A DNA stretch of 64,000 nt from an uncultured Arcobacteraceae bacterium (GCA_964022095.1 CAXHZO010000003.1:173415-237414), one strand, 5' to 3'. Counted from the stretch's first letter, positions 50,032 to 61,955 are shown. The notes: generated from the letters alone by a model not told the origin. Program-made: numbers and translations.

Positions 50032-50037
50032 TATAAT
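50032..50037 (+). promoter_or_regulatory. Probable sigma70 -10 box of the guanidine operon
   Basis: TATAAT preceded by AT-rich tracts, ~57 nt upstream of the riboswitch aptamer. Confidence 0.45.
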
Positions 50038-50093
50038 AAATTTAACAAAACATGTTTAGAGGCTATTAAACCTCTGAAAGATAAAACAAAAAT

Positions 50094-50182
50094 GGTTACT
50101 AGGGTTCCGATCACATATGATGGCTGGTCCGAGAGTAACCGACTCTTAAATAGAGTTACACGGAGGGACAAAAGCCCGGGAG
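50094..50182 (+). ncRNA. Guanidine-I riboswitch (ykkC-yxkD motif)
   Basis: P1 GGTTACT/AGTAACC enclosing AGGGTTCCG...GGCTGGTCCGAG; P2 GACTCT/AGAGTT; 3' ACACGGAGGGACAAAAGCCCGGGAG consensus; upstream of ABC transporter and carboxylase genes. Confidence 0.95.
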
Positions 50183-50226
50183 GTTAATACCTCTTAACGT
50201 GTTTTAATATCTATTTAGGAGCAAAA

Positions 50227-51303
50227 ATGAAATCTTCATTAACGAAAATCATTAAATTACTGACATTGTCTGTTCTATTTTTAGGACTATCTACTACTTC
50301 TTTATTTGCCGAAACAAAAAAAGACTTTAAAGTTGCATGGAGTATCTATGTAGGATGGATGCCTTGGGATGTTATGGAATCACAAAAAATCATGGATAAA
50401 TGGGCAGATAAATATGGAATCAACATAGAAATCGTTCAAATAAATGATTATATTGAATCAATTAATCAATATAGTGCAGGTGAATTTGATGGCTGTACTA
50501 TGGCTAATACTGATGCATTAGGGATTCCTGCTGCTGGTGGAGTTGATTCTACATCATTAATTATTGGTGATTTTTCAAATGGTAATGATGTTGTTATTTC
50601 AAAAAATGCTAAATCAATCAAAGATTTAAAAGGTACAAATGTAAACTTAGTAGAGTTATCAATCTCTCATTATTTACTTGCAAGAGGTCTAGAAAAAAAT
50701 GGTATGAGTGAAAAAGATATTACAGTTGTAAATACAAGTGATGCTGATATGGTATCTGCTTATACAACATCTGATGTAACTTCAGTTGTAACTTGGAAAC
50801 CACAAGTAAGTGAAATACTTGCAATGCCAAAAGCCAATAACTTATTTAACAGTTCTGATATTCCTGGTGAAATTATTGACTTAATGGTTGTAAATACAAA
50901 AACTTTAAAAGATAATCCAGCATTTGGTAAAGCAATGGTTGGAGCTTGGTATGAAATGATGAGTTTAATGAACTCTAATTCTGCTGAAGCAAAAGAAGCA
51001 AAAACTATTATGGCAACTGCATCAGGTACTGATTTAGCTGGTTTTGAAGATCAATTAAAAACTACAAACATGTTTTATAATCCTGCAGAAGCTGTTAAGT
51101 TCAATAATTCAGATGAAATTGTAAAAACAATGCAGTTTGTTGCAAAATTTTCATTTAATCATGGATTATATGGTGAGGGAGCTAGTGATTATGGATTTGT
51201 TGGAATTGAATTCCCTAATGGCAAAACAATAGGAGATAAAGGAAATATAAAATTAAGATTTGATGACACTTATATGAAAATGGCAGCAGAGGGTAAACTT
51301 TAA
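50227..51303 (+). CDS. ABC transporter substrate-binding protein (annotated urea-carboxylase-associated; probably guanidine)
   Basis: Signal peptide, WSIYVGWMPW, QINDYIESINQY, GDFSNGND, LVELSISHYLL. Confidence 0.9.
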   Translation: MKSSLTKIIKLLTLSVLFLGLSTTSLFAETKKDFKVAWSIYVGWMPWDVMESQKIMDKWADKYGINIEIVQINDYIESINQYSAGEFDGCTMANTDALGIPAAGGVDSTSLIIGDFSNGNDVVISKNAKSIKDLKGTNVNLVELSISHYLLARGLEKNGMSEKDITVVNTSDADMVSAYTTSDVTSVVTWKPQVSEILAMPKANNLFNSSDIPGEIIDLMVVNTKTLKDNPAFGKAMVGAWYEMMSLMNSNSAEAKEAKTIMATASGTDLAGFEDQLKTTNMFYNPAEAVKFNNSDEIVKTMQFVAKFSFNHGLYGEGASDYGFVGIEFPNGKTIGDKGNIKLRFDDTYMKMAAEGKL

Positions 51304-51318
51304 TAAAGAGGATTAATT

Positions 51319-52131
51319 ATGAAAAGGTTAATAAATCAAATCCCATCAAAAAGTACAAATATTTTTTTGGGATTATTACCTTTTCTATTAATAGTAGTGG
51401 TTTATATTAGTGCTTCAAGTGCTAGACTAGCTGAAAATCCTAATGATAAACTACTGCCATCAATAGAAAAAAGTATCACTACAATGAGTAAGATGGCTTT
51501 TGAACCAAGTAAGAGAAGTGGCGATTATATTCTTTTAGAAGATACGAAAGCAAGTTTAAAAAGACTTGCTATAGGCGTTGGAATTAGTGCATTTATTGCT
51601 TTGTCAATAGGAATTGCAATTGGAGTAGTACCTTTTATTACTTCAACTTTATCTCCTTTGATTTGGTTTTTTTCACTAATTCCAACAATGGCAATGCTTC
51701 CAATTTTATTTATTGTTTTTGGATTAGGTGAAGTATCAAAAGTGGTTCTAATTATTTTAGGAGTTGCTCCTATTATGATTAGAGATATTTATCAAAGGGT
51801 AAAAGAAATACCAAGTGAACAAATTATAAAAGTTCAAACATTAGGTGCTAGTACTTGGCAAATAATTACAAGAGTAATAACACCTCAAATATTGCCAAGA
51901 TTAATTGATTCAATTAGACTAACTTTAGGAACAGCTTGGATTTTCTTGATCTCAGCAGAAGCAATTGCAGCAACTGAAGGTTTAGGATATAGAATATTTT
52001 TAGTAAGACGTTATTTAGCTATGGATGTGATTTTACCATATGTAATTTGGATTACACTTCTAGCATTTTTTATTGATTATATTCTTAGACAATTTAATAA
52101 AAGATTATTCCCTTGGTTTGGTAAGGAGTAA
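51319..52131 (+). CDS. ABC transporter permease (NitT/TauC type)
   Basis: LPILFIVFGLGE, QTLGASTWQ, AEAIAATEGLGYRIFLVRRY. Confidence 0.92.
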   Translation: MKRLINQIPSKSTNIFLGLLPFLLIVVVYISASSARLAENPNDKLLPSIEKSITTMSKMAFEPSKRSGDYILLEDTKASLKRLAIGVGISAFIALSIGIAIGVVPFITSTLSPLIWFFSLIPTMAMLPILFIVFGLGEVSKVVLIILGVAPIMIRDIYQRVKEIPSEQIIKVQTLGASTWQIITRVITPQILPRLIDSIRLTLGTAWIFLISAEAIAATEGLGYRIFLVRRYLAMDVILPYVIWITLLAFFIDYILRQFNKRLFPWFGKE

Positions 52132-52133
52132 TT

Positions 52134-52886
52134 ATGAGTTTAGTTAAAGCAAAAAATATTTGGAAAAACTATGGTGATAATATCATTTTAGAGAATCTAA
52201 ACTTTGAGATGAATGATGGTGAGTTTTGTACTTTAGTTGGGCCTTCTGGGTGTGGTAAAAGTACATTTTTAAGAATGTTACTTGGAGTAGAAAAGCCTAA
52301 TAAAGGTGAATTACTTTTTGAAGGAAATGAATACCCAAGTGAACCAAGTGATGAAAGAGGAATTGTTTTCCAAAGATATTCAACACTAAATCACTTAAAT
52401 GTTATAGATAATGTTGTTATTGGCTTAGAGTTTGAAAAATCAAAGTTCTTTGGAAAACTTTTTGGAAGTCAAAAGAAAAAAGCTTATGAAAAAGCAGATG
52501 AAATATTAAAAGCAGTTGGATTAAATCACTCAAGAAATAAATATCCCCATGAGTTAAGTGGTGGTATGAAACAAAGATTATCAATTGCTCAATCATTAGT
52601 TAAAAGTCCAAAACTTTTATTACTAGATGAGCCTTTTGGTGCATTAGATCCTGGTATTAGTTTAGACATGCATGAATTACTTTTAGATATTCATGAAAAA
52701 CTTAACTTTGGTGTAGTTATGGTGACTCACGATATTAGTGAAGCTTTTAAGCTAGGAACTAGAGTTTTAGTATTTGATAAAGTAAAACAAGATTTAGAGT
52801 ATCCAAATAGATATGGTTCAACTATTGTAAATGATTTAGATTCAAGTGTAAAAGAAAATAAGGAAAGAAGTTATGATAAAAAGTGA
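52134..52886 (+). CDS. ABC transporter ATP-binding protein
   Basis: GPSGCGKST, LSGGMKQR, LLLDEPFGALD, VTHD. Confidence 0.95.
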   Translation: MSLVKAKNIWKNYGDNIILENLNFEMNDGEFCTLVGPSGCGKSTFLRMLLGVEKPNKGELLFEGNEYPSEPSDERGIVFQRYSTLNHLNVIDNVVIGLEFEKSKFFGKLFGSQKKKAYEKADEILKAVGLNHSRNKYPHELSGGMKQRLSIAQSLVKSPKLLLLDEPFGALDPGISLDMHELLLDIHEKLNFGVVMVTHDISEAFKLGTRVLVFDKVKQDLEYPNRYGSTIVNDLDSSVKENKERSYDKK

Positions 52887-53595
52887 AAAAGTTGTTTTAA
52901 ATGAAATTTTCCCTTCAAGTGTAAAGTGGTCGAAAATCATTAAAAGAGGACAAACAATTCAACTTAAAGCAAAAGGTGACAATGCAAGTTTAAGTGCAAT
53001 GTTTTACAACGCTTCAAATGTAGCAGAGAGATTTAATAGTGCAGATACTGTAAAGATTCAGTGGAATGCATTTTTGAATAAGCAAAAAGTTCTATTCTCA
53101 GAAATGGGAAGAGTTTTATTTGCTATTACTGATGATACAACTGATGGTTTACTTGATACTTTAGGTGGTATTTCAAATGAAAGAGTTATAAAAGAGAACT
53201 TTGGAGGTGAAGCTACTTATCAAAGTTGTAGAAACGGATATCACAAAAGTGATAAAGAGAATTTCATGATTGAGCTTGGAAAATATGGAATGACAAAAAA
53301 AGATTTAATTCCAGCATTAAATTTATTTAGAAAAGTTGATGTTAAAGAAGGTTCAAAGTTACACTTATCACCTAAAAAAGCGGCAAAGGGTGACTACATA
53401 GAATTAACTGCACATATGGATGTATTACTTATTTTATCAAATACTCCCCATGCAATGGATAAAAGTGGAGTTTATGCACCAAGTGATGTTGAGATAACAA
53501 TTTTTGATGCAGTAGCATTTGATGAAAAAGATTATGAAAACTATTCAGAAGAAGCCAAAAGAGGTTTCAAAAATACTAACAGATATTTTGTATAA
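52873..53595 (+). CDS. cgdA: Urea carboxylase-associated protein 1 / carboxyguanidine deiminase subunit A (DUF1989)
   Basis: ERFNSADTVKIQW, LFSEMGRVL, LNLFRKV, LSNTPHAMD; position in operon. Confidence 0.83.
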   Translation: MIKSEKVVLNEIFPSSVKWSKIIKRGQTIQLKAKGDNASLSAMFYNASNVAERFNSADTVKIQWNAFLNKQKVLFSEMGRVLFAITDDTTDGLLDTLGGISNERVIKENFGGEATYQSCRNGYHKSDKENFMIELGKYGMTKKDLIPALNLFRKVDVKEGSKLHLSPKKAAKGDYIELTAHMDVLLILSNTPHAMDKSGVYAPSDVEITIFDAVAFDEKDYENYSEEAKRGFKNTNRYFV

Positions 53596-53605
53596 GGATT
53601 TAAAG

Positions 53606-54226
53606 ATGTCAAAAAATATAGAAAATGCAATTTATAATGAAAAATTACCTTCAGGACTTCCATGGGCTGGTGTTATTAAAAAAGGTCAAACATTTAGAAT
53701 CGTAGATTTAGAAGGATGTCAAGCTGTTGATACACTTTTTTATAATAACGATAATTACAATGATAGATACAATGCAAATGATACTATAAGAGAACAGGGA
53801 AGTATTTTTATTACAACTGGAACTAAACTAATTTCAACAGATGATAATGTATTAATGGAAATTACAGAAGATACTTGTGGAAACCATGATACTTTAGGTG
53901 GTCACTGTAGTGCTGAGAGTAACTCTGTTAGATTTGGTTTAGATAAAAAATATATGCACTCTTGTAGAGATAACTATTTAACTATTGTTTCAAAGCTTGA
54001 AATGAGTCCAAAAGATATTACAAATAATATTAACTTTTTTATGAATGTACCAGTTGAAGAAGATGGACATTTAGCCATAGTTGATGGAATTTCAAAACCA
54101 GGTGATTATGTTCAAATGCTTGCAAAAACAGATACACTTGTTTTAATATCAAATTGTCCACAACTAAATAACCCATGTAATGGATATAACCCAACTCCAA
54201 TTCAATTAATTATTTGGGATAAATAA
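53606..54226 (+). CDS. cgdB: Urea carboxylase-associated protein 2 / carboxyguanidine deiminase subunit B (DUF1989)
   Basis: DLEGCQAVDTLFY, HDTLGGHCSAESN, NINFFMNVPV, SNCPQLNNPCNGYNPTP; start moved to ATG 53606 (AAGGA RBS). Confidence 0.87.
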   Translation: MSKNIENAIYNEKLPSGLPWAGVIKKGQTFRIVDLEGCQAVDTLFYNNDNYNDRYNANDTIREQGSIFITTGTKLISTDDNVLMEITEDTCGNHDTLGGHCSAESNSVRFGLDKKYMHSCRDNYLTIVSKLEMSPKDITNNINFFMNVPVEEDGHLAIVDGISKPGDYVQMLAKTDTLVLISNCPQLNNPCNGYNPTPIQLIIWDK

Positions 54227-54260
54227 AAATACTTACGGTTTAAAAGAGCCTTATCTTTTT

Positions 54261-54308
54261 ATTTTGTGGGACGACCTGTAAAATATAACTCATTCGGGAC
54301 GGCCCAAA
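54261..54308 (+). ncRNA. Guanidine-II riboswitch (mini-ykkC)
   Basis: Two hairpins with ACGR loops: ATTTTGTGGG-ACGA-CCTGTAAAAT (54261-54284) and GGG-ACGG-CCC (54296-54305), just upstream of the AAGGA RBS of the carboxylase. Confidence 0.85.
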
Positions 54309-54327
54309 AAAATTTCAAGGATATAAA

Positions 54328-57300
54328 ATGTTTAAAAGAGTTTTAATTGCAAATAGAGCTGAGATTGCAAATAGAATTATAAGAACTTTAAAAAAGATGG
54401 ATATTGAGTCAGTGGCTATTTATAGTGAAGCTGATAAACATGCTTCTTTTGTGATGAATGCTGATATATCTATACCTTTACATGGAACTTCTTTAGAAGA
54501 GACATATTTAAATATTCAAAAAATTATAGATATTTGTAAAGAGTATAAAGTAGATGCTATTCACCCTGGATATGGCTTTTTAAGTGAAAATGTGAGTTTT
54601 GTAAAAGAGTGTGAGAAAAATGGTATTGCATTTATTGGACCTACTTCAAAACAGATTGAAGATTTTGGATTAAAACATACTGCAAGAGACATTGCAAAGG
54701 CAAATGATGTACCACTATTAGAAGGAAGTGACCTTTTAACTAGTTTAGAAGATGCAAAAAATACTGCAAATACTATTGGTTATCCAGTTATGCTAAAAAG
54801 TACAGCTGGTGGTGGTGGAATAGGTATGAAACTTTGTTTTAGTGAAGATGAATTAGTTTCAACTTATGAAAGTGTAATTAAACTTGCAACTACAAACTTT
54901 AGTAATGGTGGAGTATTTTTAGAAAAGTATATCCAGACTGCAAGACATATTGAAGTTCAAATTTTTGGTGATGGAAAAGGAAATGTTAAGACTTTAGGTG
55001 AAAGAGATTGTTCAATTCAAAGAAGAAACCAAAAAGTTATTGAAGAAACACCAGCTCCAAATATCAGTGATGAATTAAGACAAGAACTTTTTGAAGCATC
55101 ATATAAATTAGCAAAGGCAGTTGATTATAGAAGTGCGGGGACTGTTGAGTATATCTATGATACAAAAACTAATAAGTTTTATTTTCTAGAGGTTAATACA
55201 AGATTACAAGTAGAACATGGAATCACAGAAGAGGTATGTGGAGTTGATTTAGTTGAGTGGATGATAAAAATTGCTGCAGGTGAAAATCAAATTTTATTAG
55301 ATTATGAGCATAATCCTAAAGGACATGCCCTTGAAGTTAGAGTATATGCAGAAGATGCTAGTAAAAGCTTTCAACCAAGTACGGGACTTATAACAAAAGT
55401 TGAATTCCCTGAAAATACAAGAATAGATACTTGGATTGAAGATGGTTGCATTGTTAGTCCTTTTTATGATCCTCTATTAGCAAAGATTATTACAGTAAGT
55501 TCTTCAAGACAAGAGAATATTTCAAAATTAAAAGATGTACTAGAGCAAAGTAAAATATATGGAATAGAGTCAAATTTATCTTATTTAAGTTCAATTGTAA
55601 AAGAAGATTTTTTCAAAGATTCAACTTTTTATACAAAAGTACTAGATGGCTTTGAGTTTAAATCATATAAGTTAGATATATTAAAATCTGGAACATTAAC
55701 TACAATCCAAGATTATCCTGCAAGACAAGGTTATTGGGCAGTTGGTATTCCACCATCAGGTGCAATGGATAATTTAACACCAAGAATATTAAATAAAATA
55801 TTAGATAATAGTATTGATTGTGCATTTATTGAAATGACTTTTATTGGTGCAACTTTTAAGTTTAGACAAGAAACTACTATATCTTTTGGTGGGGCTGATA
55901 TGCAAGCAACTCTAAATGGTAACAATGTAGAGATGTTTAAGGCTATTAGTGTAAATAGTGGAGATGTTTTAGAGTTTAAAAAAGTCGTGGGAGATGGTAA
56001 TAGAACTTACTTGGCAATTGATGGTGGATTTGATGTGGCTAAGTATTTAGGAAGTGCTTCAACATTTACTTTAGGTGAGTTTGGAGGACATAGTGGAAGA
56101 GCTTTAAAAGCTGGTGATGTATTAGATTACTCACAAGCTTTAACAACTAATTTTGAAAAACCAATTGATACTCCAATTTTAAGTAATGAATGGGAAATAG
56201 GTGTTGTTTATGGACCTCATGGTGCACCGGACTTCTTTACTAATGATGATATAAAAGAGTTTTTTGATTGTTCATGGGAAGTTCATTTTAATTCAAGTAG
56301 AACAGGTGTTAGACTAATAGGGCCAACTCCTTCTTGGGCAAGAAATGATGGAGGAGAAGCAGGACTTCACCCTTCTAATATTCATGATAATGCCTATGCT
56401 TTTGGAACAATAGATTTTACGGGAGATATGCCAGTAATACTAGGACCTGATGGTCCAAGTCTTGGTGGATTTGTCTGTCCAGCTACTATTATTTCTTGTG
56501 AATTATATAAAATAGGTCAACTAAAAACAGGTGATAAAATCAAATTTAAACCTATGAGTTTAGAAAATGCTGATTTGATGAATAAAGATTATGAAGAGGC
56601 ACTTGAGTTAAATAAGCCTTTACCAAAATTAGATAACTACACAATAAATTTAGATTTAAATAGTGCAACACCAATTATTGATTCTTTAAAATTTGATGAA
56701 TTAGATATCGACATTGTTATTAGAGCAGCAGGAAATGAGTTTTTATTAGTAGAAGTTGGTGAGTTAAAACTTGATATAGAGTTAAGATTTGTTATTCATG
56801 CTTTAATGAGTTATTTCGAAGAAAAAGATTTAAATGGAATTATTGATTTAACTCCTGGTATTAGAAGTTTACAAGTACATTTTAATTCATTAATAGTAAA
56901 TAGAAGTGAAATTCTAAACTTAATAAAAGAGGCTTTAATTTCATTAAATGATATAGAAAATCTAGAAGTAGAGTCAAGAACTGTATATCTTCCACTTTCT
57001 TGGAATGATCCTTCAATTCAACTTGCCATTGATAAATACCAACAAGGTGTACGTCCAAATGCTCCTTGGTGTCCAAGTAATATTGAGTTTATTAGAAGAA
57101 TAAATGGCTTAAAAGATATTAAAAAAGTACAAGATACTATTTTAGATGCTTCATATTTAGTTATGGGATTAGGTGATGTTTACTTAGGCGCACCTGTTGC
57201 AACTCCTTTAAATCCAGCTCATAGATTAGTAACTACAAAGTATAATCCAGCAAGAACATGGACAGCTCAAAACTCTGTTGGTATTGGTGGAGCATATATG

Positions 57301-57924
57301 TGTGTATATGGAATTGAAGGGCCAGGTGGATATCAATTATTTGGTAGAACACTTCAAATGTGGAATAAATACAGAACTACAAAAGAGTTTACTAAACCAT
57401 GGTTATTGAGATTTTTTGATCAAGTAAAGTTTTACTTAGTATCAAGTGATGAACTACATGATATTAGAGATAAGTTTTTGTATGGAAAGTATCCTTTAAA
57501 AATAGAAAACAATACTTTTAAATTAAAAGAGTATAAAGAGTTTTTATCAAAAAATGAAAAAGAACACATAACTTTTCAAAATAGTAGAAAAGATGCTTTT
57601 GAAGTAGAAAGACTTATGTGGAAAGAAAAAGGCTTAGATAAATTCAATGTACAAAATGAAAACTTTGAACTAAAAGATGAATTACTTTTAAGTGAAGATG
57701 AAGAAGTTGTTGAGTCTATTATGTCTGGAAATATTTGGAAAATAGAAGTAAAAGTTGGTGATGAGATAAAAGCAGGGGATGTGTTAGTAATCTTAGAGTC
57801 TATGAAAATGGAAGTTGATATTGAAAGTGATGTAAGTGGTGTAGTCTCTCAAATACTTTTTAAAGAGGGTGATAATGTAAATAGTGGTGATGTATTAGTA
57901 GTTGTTAAAAAGGAAATCAAATGA
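54328..57924 (+). CDS. uca: Urea/guanidine carboxylase (biotin-dependent), probably guanidine-preferring
   Basis: IANRAEIA, HPGYGFLSEN, ERDCSIQRRNQK, EVNTRLQVEH, GLHPSNIHD, IDFTGD, TTKYNPART, biotinyl ESMKME. Confidence 0.94.
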   Translation: MFKRVLIANRAEIANRIIRTLKKMDIESVAIYSEADKHASFVMNADISIPLHGTSLEETYLNIQKIIDICKEYKVDAIHPGYGFLSENVSFVKECEKNGIAFIGPTSKQIEDFGLKHTARDIAKANDVPLLEGSDLLTSLEDAKNTANTIGYPVMLKSTAGGGGIGMKLCFSEDELVSTYESVIKLATTNFSNGGVFLEKYIQTARHIEVQIFGDGKGNVKTLGERDCSIQRRNQKVIEETPAPNISDELRQELFEASYKLAKAVDYRSAGTVEYIYDTKTNKFYFLEVNTRLQVEHGITEEVCGVDLVEWMIKIAAGENQILLDYEHNPKGHALEVRVYAEDASKSFQPSTGLITKVEFPENTRIDTWIEDGCIVSPFYDPLLAKIITVSSSRQENISKLKDVLEQSKIYGIESNLSYLSSIVKEDFFKDSTFYTKVLDGFEFKSYKLDILKSGTLTTIQDYPARQGYWAVGIPPSGAMDNLTPRILNKILDNSIDCAFIEMTFIGATFKFRQETTISFGGADMQATLNGNNVEMFKAISVNSGDVLEFKKVVGDGNRTYLAIDGGFDVAKYLGSASTFTLGEFGGHSGRALKAGDVLDYSQALTTNFEKPIDTPILSNEWEIGVVYGPHGAPDFFTNDDIKEFFDCSWEVHFNSSRTGVRLIGPTPSWARNDGGEAGLHPSNIHDNAYAFGTIDFTGDMPVILGPDGPSLGGFVCPATIISCELYKIGQLKTGDKIKFKPMSLENADLMNKDYEEALELNKPLPKLDNYTINLDLNSATPIIDSLKFDELDIDIVIRAAGNEFLLVEVGELKLDIELRFVIHALMSYFEEKDLNGIIDLTPGIRSLQVHFNSLIVNRSEILNLIKEALISLNDIENLEVESRTVYLPLSWNDPSIQLAIDKYQQGVRPNAPWCPSNIEFIRRINGLKDIKKVQDTILDASYLVMGLGDVYLGAPVATPLNPAHRLVTTKYNPARTWTAQNSVGIGGAYMCVYGIEGPGGYQLFGRTLQMWNKYRTTKEFTKPWLLRFFDQVKFYLVSSDELHDIRDKFLYGKYPLKIENNTFKLKEYKEFLSKNEKEHITFQNSRKDAFEVERLMWKEKGLDKFNVQNENFELKDELLLSEDEEVVESIMSGNIWKIEVKVGDEIKAGDVLVILESMKMEVDIESDVSGVVSQILFKEGDNVNSGDVLVVVKKEIK

Positions 57925-59249
57925 ATTTAAATATTGAAAATTTACGAAACTCGTATACAGATGGAAGTTTAACTGTAAGTGAAGTTATAAAATCTATTAA
58001 AGAAAAAATAAAAGAGTATGAGAATTACAATATTTGGATATTTACTTTAAGTGATGAACAACTAAATAGTTATATAAAGAATTTACAAAATAAGAATATA
58101 GAAGATTTACCTTTATATGGAATTCCTTTTGCTATTAAAGATAATATTGATTTAGTTGATATTCCTACAACTGCAGGATGTAAAGAGTATGAATATACTC
58201 CTTCTAAATCAGCATATGTAGTTGACCAATTAATCAAAGCAGGTGCAATACCAATTGGAAAAACAAATCTTGATCAATTTGCTACAGGATTAGTAGGTAC
58301 TAGAAGTCCATATGGAGAGTGTAAAAATTCTATAAACTCTGAATATATATCAGGAGGTTCAAGTTCTGGAAGCGCAGTAAGTGTTGCACTTGATATGGTT
58401 AGTTTCTCTCTTGGAACTGATACAGCAGGAAGTGGTAGAGTTCCCGCTGCTTTTAATAATCTTATAGGATTAAAAGCATCAAAGGGAGTTATTAGTACAA
58501 GTGGCGTTGTTCCTGCTTGTAGAAGTTTAGATTGTGTAACTGTTTTTACAAAAGACTTACAAAGTATTGAGAATGTATTTACTTGTATAAATTCATACGA
58601 TGAAGAAGATATTTATTCTAGAAAAAAAATTACTAATAAAATAGATATTAAAGAAAACTTTACTTTTGCCATACCAAATGAATCACAATTAAAGTTTTTT
58701 GGTGATGATGAATCAAAAGAGTTGTTTTTTAAAGCAGTAGAAAAACTAAAATCACTTGGTGGAAAAGTAGTACAAATTGATTATGAACCATTTAATGAAA
58801 GTGCAAATTTACTTTATAGTGGACCTTGGGTTACTGAGAGATATATTGCTATAAAAGATACAATAACAAAAACTCCTCAAGTAGTTGAGCCCACTGTTAG
58901 AAAGATTATCTCAGGGGGAGATAAGATTGATGCTGTTAATTATTTTCAATCAGAATATACATTAAAGAAAAATAGAAAATATGCCGATAAGATTTTCAAT
59001 CAATTTGATTTTATGCTAACACCAACTACTGGAACGATATATAAAATTGATGAGGTGAATTCTGATCCAATACAGCTAAATACAAATCTTGGATATTACA
59101 CTAACTATATGAATTTATTAGATTTAAGTGCAATTGCACTTCCTGCTGGATTTAGAAAAAACGGTTTACCATTTGGAGTAACAATTGTTGCAAATACTTT
59201 TGAAGAAGAGAAATTATTATCTTATTCTTCTTTGTATTTAAAGGATTAA
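57921..59249 (+). CDS. atzF: Allophanate hydrolase, amidase-signature domain
   Basis: PFAIKDNID, GKTNLDQFATGLVGTRSPYG, GGSSSGS, GTDTAGSGRVPA, LGYYTNYMNLLD. Confidence 0.93.
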   Translation: MNLNIENLRNSYTDGSLTVSEVIKSIKEKIKEYENYNIWIFTLSDEQLNSYIKNLQNKNIEDLPLYGIPFAIKDNIDLVDIPTTAGCKEYEYTPSKSAYVVDQLIKAGAIPIGKTNLDQFATGLVGTRSPYGECKNSINSEYISGGSSSGSAVSVALDMVSFSLGTDTAGSGRVPAAFNNLIGLKASKGVISTSGVVPACRSLDCVTVFTKDLQSIENVFTCINSYDEEDIYSRKKITNKIDIKENFTFAIPNESQLKFFGDDESKELFFKAVEKLKSLGGKVVQIDYEPFNESANLLYSGPWVTERYIAIKDTITKTPQVVEPTVRKIISGGDKIDAVNYFQSEYTLKKNRKYADKIFNQFDFMLTPTTGTIYKIDEVNSDPIQLNTNLGYYTNYMNLLDLSAIALPAGFRKNGLPFGVTIVANTFEEEKLLSYSSLYLKD

Positions 59250-59251
59250 AT

Positions 59252-59644
59252 ATGAATGAAAATGAAATACTAGTTGGCGTTTGTGGCGCTCATATGAGTG
59301 GGTTACCTCTCAATTGGCAATTAACTCAATTAGATGCAACTTTAGTTAAAAAAACAAAAACAAAAAAAGGTTATAGACTATTTGTTTTAGAAAATAAAGA
59401 TCCAATTAGACCAGGTATGATTTATGACTCTTCAAGTTCTACTCAAATAGAAGTAGAAGTATGGAGCATGAAAGTTGAAAACTTTGGGAAGTTTATGAAA
59501 CAAATCGCAAGTCCATTAGGCATAGGCTCTGTTTTTTTAGAAGATGATTCTTTTGTATATGGCTTTTTATGTGAAGCTGATTTTGTAAAAGATGTAAAAG
59601 AGATAAGTGAACTTAGTTCTTGGAGAGCATTTGTATGTCAGTAA
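59252..59644 (+). CDS. Allophanate hydrolase C-terminal domain as a separate protein
   Basis: VCGAHMSGLPLNWQL, YRLF, RPGM, IEVEVW, PLGIG, GFLCE, WRAF; own AAGGA RBS. Confidence 0.87.
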   Translation: MNENEILVGVCGAHMSGLPLNWQLTQLDATLVKKTKTKKGYRLFVLENKDPIRPGMIYDSSSSTQIEVEVWSMKVENFGKFMKQIASPLGIGSVFLEDDSFVYGFLCEADFVKDVKEISELSSWRAFVCQ

Positions 59645-59961
59645 CAACTGTAGCTTGGATATATCTGATTATTGCAGGTATATTGGAAGCATTTTGGGCA
59701 ATTGGATTAAAGTTTAGTGAAGGTTTTACTAAACCAATTCCTACAACAATTACTTTAGTTTTAGTGTTAAGTAGTTTTTATTTACTCTCTCAATCTATGA
59801 AAGTTTTGCCAGTTAGTTATGCTTATGCTGTTTGGTGTGCTATTGGTATAGTTTCACTTGTCTTAATAGAGTATTTATATTTTCAGTCAACTTTAGGAGT
59901 TGCGAAAGTTATATCTATAATGCTGATTTTATTGGGAATTATAGGGTTGAAAATATTCTAA
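59635..59961 (+). CDS. gdx: SMR-family guanidinium exporter (Gdx/SugE type)
   Basis: WIYLIIAGILEAFWAIGLKFSEGFTK, AYAVW, GIIGLK; 4 TM; last gene of the riboswitch-led operon; start at ATG 59635. Confidence 0.8.
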   Translation: MSVTTVAWIYLIIAGILEAFWAIGLKFSEGFTKPIPTTITLVLVLSSFYLLSQSMKVLPVSYAYAVWCAIGIVSLVLIEYLYFQSTLGVAKVISIMLILLGIIGLKIF

Positions 59962-60049
59962 AATTTTTAATCTGTTCTTAAGTTTTAAACTAATAGAATA
60001 AAATTATCAAAGGAAAAATATTTTCCTTTAAATCAAGAAGGATAATTTT

Positions 60050-61477
60050 ATGAAAAAAATATTAACAACTACAGCTGGTAATCCAATATCTGATAATCAA
60101 AACTCTAAAACAGCAGGTCAAAGAGGGCCAGTATTATTAGAAGACTATCAATTAATTGAAAAACTAGCTCATCAAAACAGAGAAAGAATTCCAGAAAGAG
60201 TAGTTCACGCTAAAGGAAGTGGAGCATTTGGTGTTTTAGAAATTACTGAAGATATTTCAAAATATACTAAAGCAAAAGTATTACAAAAAGGTGAAAAAAC
60301 AAGACTTTTACTTAGATTCTCAACTGTTGCAGGTGAAAAAGGTGCAGCGGATGCAGAAAGAGATGTAAGAGGATTTGCTCTTAAATTCTATACAAAAGAA
60401 GGTAATTGGGATTTAGTTGGTAATAATACTCCTGTTTTTTTTATTAGAGATGCATATAAATTCCCTGATTTTATACATACCCAAAAAAGACATCCCGTTA
60501 CAAATCTAAGAAGTAATACAGCTGCTTGGGATTTTTGGTCATTAAGTCCAGAAAGTCTGCATCAAGTAACAATTTTAATGTCTGATAGAGGACTTCCAAA
60601 ATCATATAGACATGTAAATGGATATGGTTCACATACATATAGTTTAATTAATGACGAAGGTAAAAGAGTTTGGGTTAAATTTCACTTCAAAACAAAACAA
60701 GGAATTGAAACTATTACAAATAAAGAAGCAGAAGAGATTGTAGCTAAAGATAGAGAATCAAACCAAAGAGATTTATTTGAAAATATTGAAAATGGAAACT
60801 TTCCTAAGTGGAGTTTTGAAATTCAAGTTATGACAGAAGAGCAAGCAAAAGAATCTAATTTTAACCCATTTGACTTGACAAAAGTTTGGCCTCATGGAGA
60901 TTATCCAATGATTAAAGTTGGTGAAATGACTTTAAATGAAAATCCTAAAAACTATTTTAATGAAATAGAACAAGCTTCATTTTCTCCATCAAATGTAGTT
61001 CCAGGTATTGGATTCTCACCAGATAAAATGTTACAAGCTAGAATTTTCTCTTACCCAGATGCACATAGATACAGAGTAGGGACTCACTATGAAATGCTTC
61101 CTGTAAATAGACCAATAGTTGATGTAAATACTTATAATGCTGATGGAAGTATGAACTTTGAGCAAAGAGAGCGAACAGATATATACTATGAACCAAATAG
61201 CTTTAATGGACCAGTTGAAGATAAAAAATACTCTGAGCCACCACTTGAAGTTGGAAATGTAGCTGATAGATATGACCACAGAATTGGAAATGATGATTTT
61301 ACTCAAGTAACAGCACTATTTAATTTAATGAGTGAAAATCAAAAAGAACAACTATTTGGAAATATAGCTGCAGCTATGGAAGGTGTTCCAAGTGATATTG
61401 TAAATAGACAAATTACATTATTTGAAAAAGTAAATCCTGATTATGCAGCAGGAGTTAAAAAAGCATTAGGAGTTTAA
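60050..61477 (+). CDS. katA: Monofunctional heme catalase
   Basis: [44 protein letters not shown]. Confidence 0.96.
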
Positions 61478-61478
61478 C

Positions 61479-61955
61479 ATGACTGCAACAGCTAATGAAT
61501 TAAATAGATATGAAGAGTTACAGTTAATTGCTTTAGATTATGCAAGACATGGTATGACTGAAGATTTAAGGCTGATGCTAAATGCAGGAATGCCAGTAAA
61601 TCTTAGTGATCATAAAGGAAATACTTTAATCATGCTTGCTTCATATAATGGAAATGCTGATACAACTCAGCTTTTAGTAGATTATGAAGCTCAAGTTGAT
61701 AAAAAAAATGATAGAGGACAAACGCCACTTGCAGGTGTTTGTTTCAAAGGCTATTTAGAAATTGTTAAAATACTTGTAGAAGGTGGAGCAAATATTCATG
61801 AAAATAATGGAATGGGAACAACACCAATTATGTTTGCAAGTATGTTTGGAAATACTGAAATAGTTGAGTATTTAACTAGTCAAAATAATAGTTTTAAATC
61901 AAAAGTTTATTTAGGTATATCTAAATTTATCAACAAATTTAAAAAGAATAAATAA
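61479..61955 (+). CDS. Ankyrin-repeat protein downstream of catalase
   Basis: GNTLIMLASYNG, GQTPLAGVCFKG, GTTPIMFASMFG; katA-ankyrin pairing is known in Campylobacter and Pseudomonas. Confidence 0.9.
   Translation: MTATANELNRYEELQLIALDYARHGMTEDLRLMLNAGMPVNLSDHKGNTLIMLASYNGNADTTQLLVDYEAQVDKKNDRGQTPLAGVCFKGYLEIVKILVEGGANIHENNGMGTTPIMFASMFGNTEIVEYLTSQNNSFKSKVYLGISKFINKFKKNK

Follow-up and report, generated by a model that had tools for sequence, protein, structure and literature searches.

A probable guanidine assimilation operon with guanidine-I and guanidine-II riboswitches in an uncultured Arcobacteraceae bacterium

The operon considered here occupies positions 50032..59961 of a 64 kb stretch of DNA (64,000 nucleotides [nt], referred to below as the window; GCA_964022095.1, CAXHZO010000003.1:173415-237414) from the 2.57 Mb genome of an uncultured Arcobacteraceae bacterium. 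Judging by its genes and RNA elements, it is very probably an operon for guanidine assimilation that follows a published design with two riboswitches, in which a guanidine-I (ykkC) riboswitch heads the genes for an ABC importer, cgdA and cgdB, and a guanidine-II (mini-ykkC) riboswitch precedes the carboxylase gene. A preliminary description of the locus had implied that this arrangement was new. In fact, the same two-riboswitch operon, with the same reading in terms of transcription and translation, is reported in PMC12508155 and PMC12186494, and the present operon is a further example of that design and not a new one.

Genes of the operon and the riboswitch at its head

Gene identities were taken from Pfam and NCBIfam profile searches of the window proteins, and all the operon genes lie on the + strand. 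The first encodes an ABC substrate-binding protein of the uca-associated type, presumably part of a guanidine importer (50227..51303; TIGR03427, 543.1 bits against a cut-off of 333.9), and is followed by genes for an ABC permease (51319..52131; PF00528, with conserved synteny) and an ABC ATPase (52134..52886; PF00005). Next come cgdA (52873..53595; DUF1989, UAAP1; TIGR03425, 253.4 bits against 205.95) and cgdB (53606..54226; DUF1989, UAAP2; TIGR03424, 330.9 bits against 284.7), the adjacent DUF1989 paralogs of carboxyguanidine deiminase (CgdA/CgdB), each of which scores above its own UAAP1 or UAAP2 cut-off. The cgdB start is most likely ATG 53606, a codon preceded by an AAGGA Shine–Dalgarno (SD) sequence and consistent with a 206-aa form present in the protein collection. 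Downstream lie a guanidine carboxylase of 1198 aa, whose annotated family is urea carboxylase (54328..57924; TIGR02712, 1747.7 bits against 1303.85), the two parts of an allophanate hydrolase, and an SMR family, Gdx-like exporter (59635..59961). Import, assimilation and export are therefore encoded together on one strand, just as had been proposed. In order, the intergenic gaps by open reading frame (ORF) coordinates are 15, 2, −14, 10, 101, −4, 2 and −10 nt, which leaves little room for anything else; the gap between cgdB and the carboxylase gene had rightly been singled out as the only sizeable internal spacer, all others being 15 nt or less.

The assignment of the carboxylase to guanidine can be examined at two residues. 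According to PMC11410670, guanidine carboxylases have Asp at K. lactis position 1330, where urea carboxylases have Asn, together with Asp at 1584. In the present protein, Asp696 aligns with K. lactis urea carboxylase Asn1330 (3va7_A chain index 737) and Asp950 aligns with K. lactis Asp1584 (chain index 991), where the K. lactis numbering is the 3va7_A index plus an offset of 593, fixed by way of the full-length chain 5i8i_A. By alignment, then, the enzyme carries both of the residues that mark a guanidine carboxylase.

For comparison, a sample of 151 genomes of the same Arcobacteraceae-like family was used; the nearest named relatives of this family, by a separate search, are Halarcobacter and Aliarcobacter metagenome-assembled genomes (MAGs). 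The allophanate hydrolase predicted after the carboxylase is indeed there, but as two ORFs in different frames: an amidase part (57921..59249; NF006043, 612.9 bits over profile positions 6-442 of 600) and a separate C-terminal domain (59252..59644; PF21986 AH_C, 146 bits). The same split occurs in 15/15 family loci where both parts were found. Because it is conserved across the family, the split hydrolase is read from these sequences as a stable two-subunit form and not as a pseudogene. In a broad set of 49 loci, the hydrolase is fused in 44 and split in five, two of the latter being close relatives of the family.

The exporter most likely starts at ATG 59635, which is preceded by a GGAGAG SD sequence. 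Among solved structures, it is nearest to the 6wk5/6wk8 group (95 bits, versus 57.5 bits for EmrE); from its entry in the search listing, we take 6WK8 to be Gdx-Clo. Against the NCBIfam SugE profile it scores 89.9 bits, under the cut-off of 126. Of the 16 family operons covered to their 3′ end, 12 close with a Gdx-like exporter.

The guanidine-I aptamer lies at 50088..50184 on the + strand, where RF00442 matches over its whole length (model positions 1-107/107) with 90.2 bits against a gathering score of 63 and an E-value of 6.7e-15; the aptamer had been claimed at 50094-50182 and is clearly borne out. RF00442 is the only Rfam family to reach its gathering score in the 64 kb window, and this match is the sole one in the genome. 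A terminator-like hairpin overlaps the 3′ end of the aptamer (50178..50195, + strand; GGGAGGU-loop-ACCUCUU with 7 pairs, then AACGTGTTTT), and the same hairpin comes after guanidine-I in 16/16 family operons examined. The usual guanidine-I platform, as described in PMC12186494, is a terminator stem that overlaps the 3′ part of the aptamer and acts as a transcriptional ON switch, and the hairpin at 50178-50195 would probably serve as the expression platform here. The best-scoring promoter-like site of the + strand (TTTAAA-17-TATAAT, 50009..50037; 10/12 matches) lies some 50 nt before the aptamer; it is a consensus match only, in a region that holds 43 such sites against a mean of 55.8 in its shuffles. 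Between this site and the aptamer, an 8-bp hairpin (UUUAGAGG ... CCUCUGAA) occurs at 50055-50078.

Guanidine-I was found in 17 of the 151 family genomes, with 20 matches, all above gathering. Three copies lie outside the main operon: L055 (G060, contig 12), L054 446-1507 (G119) and L059 13671-14747 (G073). One of them has no homolog of an operon gene within 11 kb, and the other two each precede a solitary gene for a substrate-binding protein, with an SMR gene further downstream in the case of G073.

Twin hairpins before the carboxylase gene

The guanidine-II element had been placed at 54261-54308, directly before the ribosome-binding site of the carboxylase gene. Twin ACGR-capped hairpins do lie there, at 54261..54306 on the + strand. 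In P1, 54261-54270 pairs with 54275-54284 beneath an ACGA loop (54271-54274); after a linker of 11 nt (54285-54295), P2 consists of GGG (54296-54298), an ACGG loop (54299-54302) and CCC (54303-54305). Directly under the loops, the pairs are GG/CC in P1 and GGG/CCC in P2. The carboxylase SD sequence, AAGGA (54317..54321, + strand), lies downstream of P2, separated from it by 11 nt and from ATG 54328 by 6 nt, and it is invariant in 14/14 aligned spacers. The position claimed for the element relative to the ribosome-binding site thus agrees with the sequence.

The features of the guanidine-II class were taken from PMC5558903 and PMC10351892. By these accounts, members of the class have a pair of hairpins with an ACGR tetraloop on each (PMC5558903), and a closing G-C pair in each helix that is conserved without covariation (PMC10351892). 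The window element shows the ACGR loops, the invariant closing G-C and two G-C pairs per loop; moreover, its stems covary, its 11-nt linker is inside the range of 7-40 nt, and a carboxylase gene adjoins. The motif GACGRC-N12-42-GACGRC occurs once in the window (both strands) and in 0/100 dinucleotide-preserving shuffles.

Much of the evidence for the element comes from the family. RF01068 is above gathering in 14/151 genomes, with weaker matches besides, and in eight genomes, as in the window, a sub-threshold RF01068 match follows guanidine-I on the same strand at a distance of 4.1-4.7 kb. All fetched guanidine-I regions together yielded 17 operons, the window included, with a cgdB-carboxylase junction. 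P1 (ACGA) and P2 (ACGG) are present at 14 of these 17 junctions, 30-37 nt before the start codon and across six genus labels (g1, g7, g11, g12, g14 and g20), so the dual arrangement that the preliminary description suggested looking for in Arcobacteraceae does recur among relatives. In the 14-sequence alignment, 94.1% of cells pair, versus 36-58% in controls whose 3′ partners were shifted by 1-3 columns. For P1 the paired share is 97.4%, and in four of nine pairs both partners have changed (U-A/C-G, A-U/G-C); the closing G-C pairs are present in both helices of 13/13 distinct sequences, and the loops are invariant in 14/14. The covariation score was exceeded by 0/500 shuffles, a measure that relatedness among the sequences inflates, and RNAalifold, unguided, predicts both P1 (10 bp) and P2 (3 bp). 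The linker varies in length and sequence across the family, and conservation is lacking in the 5′ part of the spacer.

Two further observations concern these family operons. In G073, cgdB and the riboswitch are separated by an additional ORF (L059 6022-6923, minus strand) whose product has a metallo-beta-lactamase-type HLHFDHAGG motif; despite the insertion, the riboswitch remains beside the carboxylase gene. The carboxylase start codon is non-ATG in four of the 14 operons with the element, being TTG in G146 and GTG in G131, G141 and G147.

A covariance model, R1, was built from the 14 family cores, window included. It scores 67.1 bits on the window and finds one strong site per operon-bearing genome at 57-75 bits, these being its own training sequences. 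Searched across the 151 genomes for further copies, for instance before gdx, R1 found none beyond the training sites and three weak matches (G039, G085 and G121; 27-34 bits, E 0.006-0.09). With one strong site per operon-bearing genome, the internal element is therefore specific to the cgdB-carboxylase junction, as far as these sequences go.

Guanidine-II elements of another kind occur before standalone gdx genes of 105-107 aa in the same family (L003-L017; 15/15 loci, 14 above gathering and L017 at 29.9 bits); the remaining four loci of this check comprised the operon site of G060 and three weak, probably spurious matches. Like the window element, those before gdx mostly have ACGA and then ACGG, an AAGGA-type SD similarly near P2, and AT-rich flanks. 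They differ in that their stems keep at least 2 G-C pairs, they reach 29.9-40.7 bits with RF01068, and none scores with R1 at E<=0.1. Because they do not score with R1, the pre-gdx and the operon-internal sets are taken, on sequence similarity, to be separate lineages of the class.

Several observations weigh against the window element as a member of the class. RF01068 covers 54263-54307 at only 21.6 bits, below its gathering score of 32, so that of the check proposed earlier, a search with both Rfam models, the ykkC part succeeded and the mini-ykkC part fell short; the twin hairpins stand and the Rfam call does not. The E-value of this match is 0.011 on a 146-nt stretch and 0.045 genome-wide, with no other match in the genome at E<=10. 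P1 of the window contains three wobble pairs and P2 has only three G-C pairs, with hairpin energies of −3.6 kcal/mol for P1 and −3.8 kcal/mol for P2. The second P1 pair is A-U or G-U in 12/14 copies and not the "conserved G-C" of the class; over the 13 distinct sequences it is A-U in eight, G-U in three and G-C in two, a feature relaxed in the relatives. Finally, three of the 17 family operons are without the element, which is hence dispensable: G102 and G119 have an 18-nt spacer, and G134 has an AT-rich spacer of 106 nt with no ACGR.

The RF01068 score is the only class feature that the element lacks, and the Rfam score penalises AU-rich stems. The homologs at the same site in the family score 17.6-29.9 bits where scored, all under 32, because their P1 is AU-rich. 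On the comparative evidence, there is strong reason to regard 54261-54306 as a genuine guanidine-II riboswitch, a variant that would be expected to bind guanidinium.

Known systems and breadth of the design

The closest described counterpart is in Vreelandella (Halomonas) boliviensis LC1 (PMC12508155, Nat Commun 2025), where, as in the window, an ABC importer, cgdA and cgdB are followed by an internal guanidine-II between cgdB and the carboxylase gene, with the hydrolase downstream. In that organism, mgdH and mgdL lie between carboxylase and hydrolase, and the RNAs are validated. According to that report, in-line probing of both RNAs showed the guanidine-I to be guanidine-specific, with a dissociation constant (KD) of 44 uM, and gave the internal guanidine-II a KD of 93 uM for guanidine and 83 uM for methylguanidine; its authors propose transcriptional plus translational control, and the whole operon is up-regulated (PMC12508155). 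Unlike it, the window has a terminal gdx exporter, a hydrolase in two genes and an AU-rich P1, and is known from sequence alone. A 2025 review (PMC12186494) describes a similar order in Raoultella terrigena, Klebsiella michiganensis and Erwinia rhapontici, with the importer and carboxyguanidine deiminase behind guanidine-I and, immediately downstream, the carboxylase and allophanate hydrolase behind guanidine-II; these are Enterobacteria, not Arcobacteraceae-like, and the comparison is with the review's description only.

The guanidine-II element before SugE/Gdx in P. aeruginosa (PMC5558903, PMC10351892) resembles that of the window in its two ACGR hairpins, invariant closing G-C and an SD soon after P2, and its linker is likewise within 7-40 nt. 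The P. aeruginosa element, whose stems are GC-rich, lies in the 5′ untranslated region (5′-UTR) of just one gene, whereas that of the window is intercistronic and AU-rich, with an extra competing hairpin. By these reports, a helix between the 5′ and 3′ tails (P0b) is the platform in P. aeruginosa: it holds translation off until ligand-induced kissing of P1 and P2 pulls it apart (PMC5558903, PMC10351892), and direct SD sequestration is dispensable (PMC10351892). The window can form an analogous 7-bp helix, which is not consistently predicted in its homologs.

Beyond the family, a broad survey covered 80 loci with a CgdB alignment, 74 of them with a scorable cgdB-carboxylase junction. Twin ACGR hairpins were found at 28/74 junctions across phyla, and 17 of these 28 were also preceded, on the same strand, by a guanidine-I core motif; a further 26 junctions had the guanidine-I motif only and 20 had neither. 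When 11 of the 17 dual loci were scanned at the Rfam gathering score, guanidine-I was present in 11/11 and the junction guanidine-II in 10/11. These scanned loci are proteobacterial (Burkholderiales, Gallionella, Sideroxydans, Sulfuriferula, Methylocaldum, Thiobacillaceae, Halomonas and others), and in two Halomonas loci (L124 and L136) both RNAs reach the gathering score. A Thiobacillaceae MAG (L116) has two guanidine-I aptamers above gathering (1150-1257 and 2376-2481), separated by 1.2 kb and on the same strand, ahead of a single operon in which an internal guanidine-II is likewise present. A literature search for guanidine riboswitches and Arcobacter returned only Stav et al. 2019 (PMC6429828), a non-coding RNA analysis of an Arcobacter genome, the retrieved passages of which do not mention the operon; its supplement may list it.

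The features particular to the present case are the lineage itself, the AU-rich P1, the conserved extra hairpin 5′ of P1, the split hydrolase, the Gdx-like exporter at the operon end, and the occurrence of three operons without the internal switch.

Proposed control and flanking features

In the proposed mechanism, the guanidine-I riboswitch in the 5′ leader would most likely act as a transcriptional ON switch, bound guanidine letting RNA polymerase read past the terminator-like hairpin into the ABC importer genes and cgdA-cgdB. In the cgdB-carboxylase spacer, each ACGR hairpin of guanidine-II would bind one guanidinium, after which the two would kiss and, most likely, raise translation initiation at the carboxylase SD. 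The carboxylase, the two-gene hydrolase and the Gdx-type exporter would then follow in overlapping or nearly abutting frames. Co-transcription across the spacer, like the direction and mechanism of both switches, is what we infer from this layout.

How the internal switch might act on the SD was considered through folding. Directly 5′ of P1 is a small hairpin (AAAAGA/UCUUUU, 54242..54259, + strand), the pyrimidine arm of which has the carboxylase SD as an alternative partner. It occurs in most family spacers, where AAAAGA/UCUUUU is exchanged for the compensatory AAGAGA/UCUCUU, and it may serve as an anti-anti-SD, an insulator or a weak terminator. The minimum free energy fold of the window contains the 7-bp tail helix, UAUCUUU (54252-54258) with AAGGAUA (54317-54323), and with P1 and P2 formed, the states with the SD paired (−10.4 kcal/mol) and free (−11.2 kcal/mol) are nearly isoenergetic. 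These predictions suggest an SD / anti-SD / anti-anti-SD arrangement in the spacer.

The same folding also supplies points that count against the mechanism. When the 14 spacers were folded by partition function, either free or with P1 and P2 forced, the probability that the SD is unpaired was 0.08 in the window when free, versus 0.41-0.84 in 12/13 homologs, where the SD is predicted to be largely unpaired in either state, and forcing P1 and P2 shifted SD accessibility in only two of the 14 (from 0.08 to 0.24 in the window and from 0.15 to 0.44 in G050). A consistent expression platform is accordingly not established by the modelling. SD sequestration, tried as a conserved platform, was rejected as general evidence, its effect being clear only in the window and G050. 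At the head of the operon, the U-tract of the 50178-50195 hairpin is interrupted (UU-5 nt-UUUU), for which reason we only infer that it functions as a terminator.

One tentative elaboration is a two-step gate on a single polycistronic mRNA, where guanidine-I would open transcription at low guanidine and guanidine-II would release translation of the carboxylase, which depends on ATP and biotin, and of the hydrolase and exporter only at higher guanidine, or also with methylguanidine. As part of this, and held just as tentatively, there could be a three-way competition among the purine tract 54242-54247, the pyrimidine tract 54252-54259 and the carboxylase SD. If the gate exists, the three element-free operons would be ready-made controls for its second tier.

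A somewhat doubtful alternative is that the internal switch adds further ligands to the range sensed, methylguanidine for example, so that the two switches integrate different inputs and do not set two guanidine thresholds. The equal binding of guanidine and methylguanidine by the V. boliviensis guanidine-II, next to a guanidine-specific head switch (PMC12508155), would be in keeping with such a role. However, the window operon has no counterpart of the methylguanidine hydroxylase or lyase, its hydrolase following directly after the carboxylase; should the head switch respond to guanidine only, the operon would stay closed with methylguanidine as the sole ligand; and nothing in the sequence speaks to specificity.

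Another means of arriving at this layout would be two separate transcription units, an unlikely arrangement in which the importer-cgdAB unit ends at a hairpin and U-rich tract (54242-54268) and the carboxylase, hydrolase and gdx genes have their own promoter in or just before the spacer. The guanidine-II would then be, with the same low probability, an ordinary 5′-UTR switch and not an internal one. A conserved hairpin and U-rich run immediately 5′ of P1 in most family spacers would suit such an end, as would the inserted gene of G073, where the riboswitch stays with the carboxylase. Nevertheless, a consensus scan found no + strand promoter-like site and no terminator-like site at 54227-54327, although this is weak evidence either way, the region being poorer in promoter-like sites than its shuffles. 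In addition, the small hairpin is very weak (−2.5 kcal/mol), its supposed U-tract is the 5′ arm of P1, and in PMC12508155 the element counts as internal to a single operon, up-regulated as a whole. With no such site in the spacer, an unconserved 5′ part, and whole gaps of only 71-86 nt in other phyla, mostly taken up by the riboswitch, co-transcription is favoured on sequence grounds.

That the twin hairpins are instead a product of chance or a structural feature in an AT-rich spacer, such as an mRNA stability or processing element that binds no guanidine, is highly improbable: the sub-threshold Rfam score, the short P2, the wobble-rich P1 and the operons that manage without the element would fit it, but the loops and closing G-C pairs are invariant over 14 operons and six genus labels, the P1 stem covaries, an above-threshold guanidine-II occupies the same position in 10/11 other loci, and twin hairpins arise in just 81 of 20,000 random 120-nt windows, with the motif absent from all the window shuffles.

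Returning to the two-riboswitch operon, its main value is for annotation. In all 14 family operons that bear it, the internal guanidine-II goes undetected at the Rfam gathering score, and automated surveys would therefore list these operons as under guanidine-I control only. The family also provides a natural experiment on what the second switch contributes, with 14 operons that have it and three, otherwise syntenic, that do not, and the published design is confirmed, at the level of sequence comparison, in a further bacterial lineage.

Beyond the exporter gene, a perfect 9-bp hairpin was read from the sequence at 60009..60029, between gdx and a catalase gene. It has no U-tract on the + strand and was not picked up by the terminator scan of the region, and it may mark the end of the operon. 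The catalase gene and the gene for a small ankyrin-repeat protein directly after it (together 60050-61955) form a known gene pairing.

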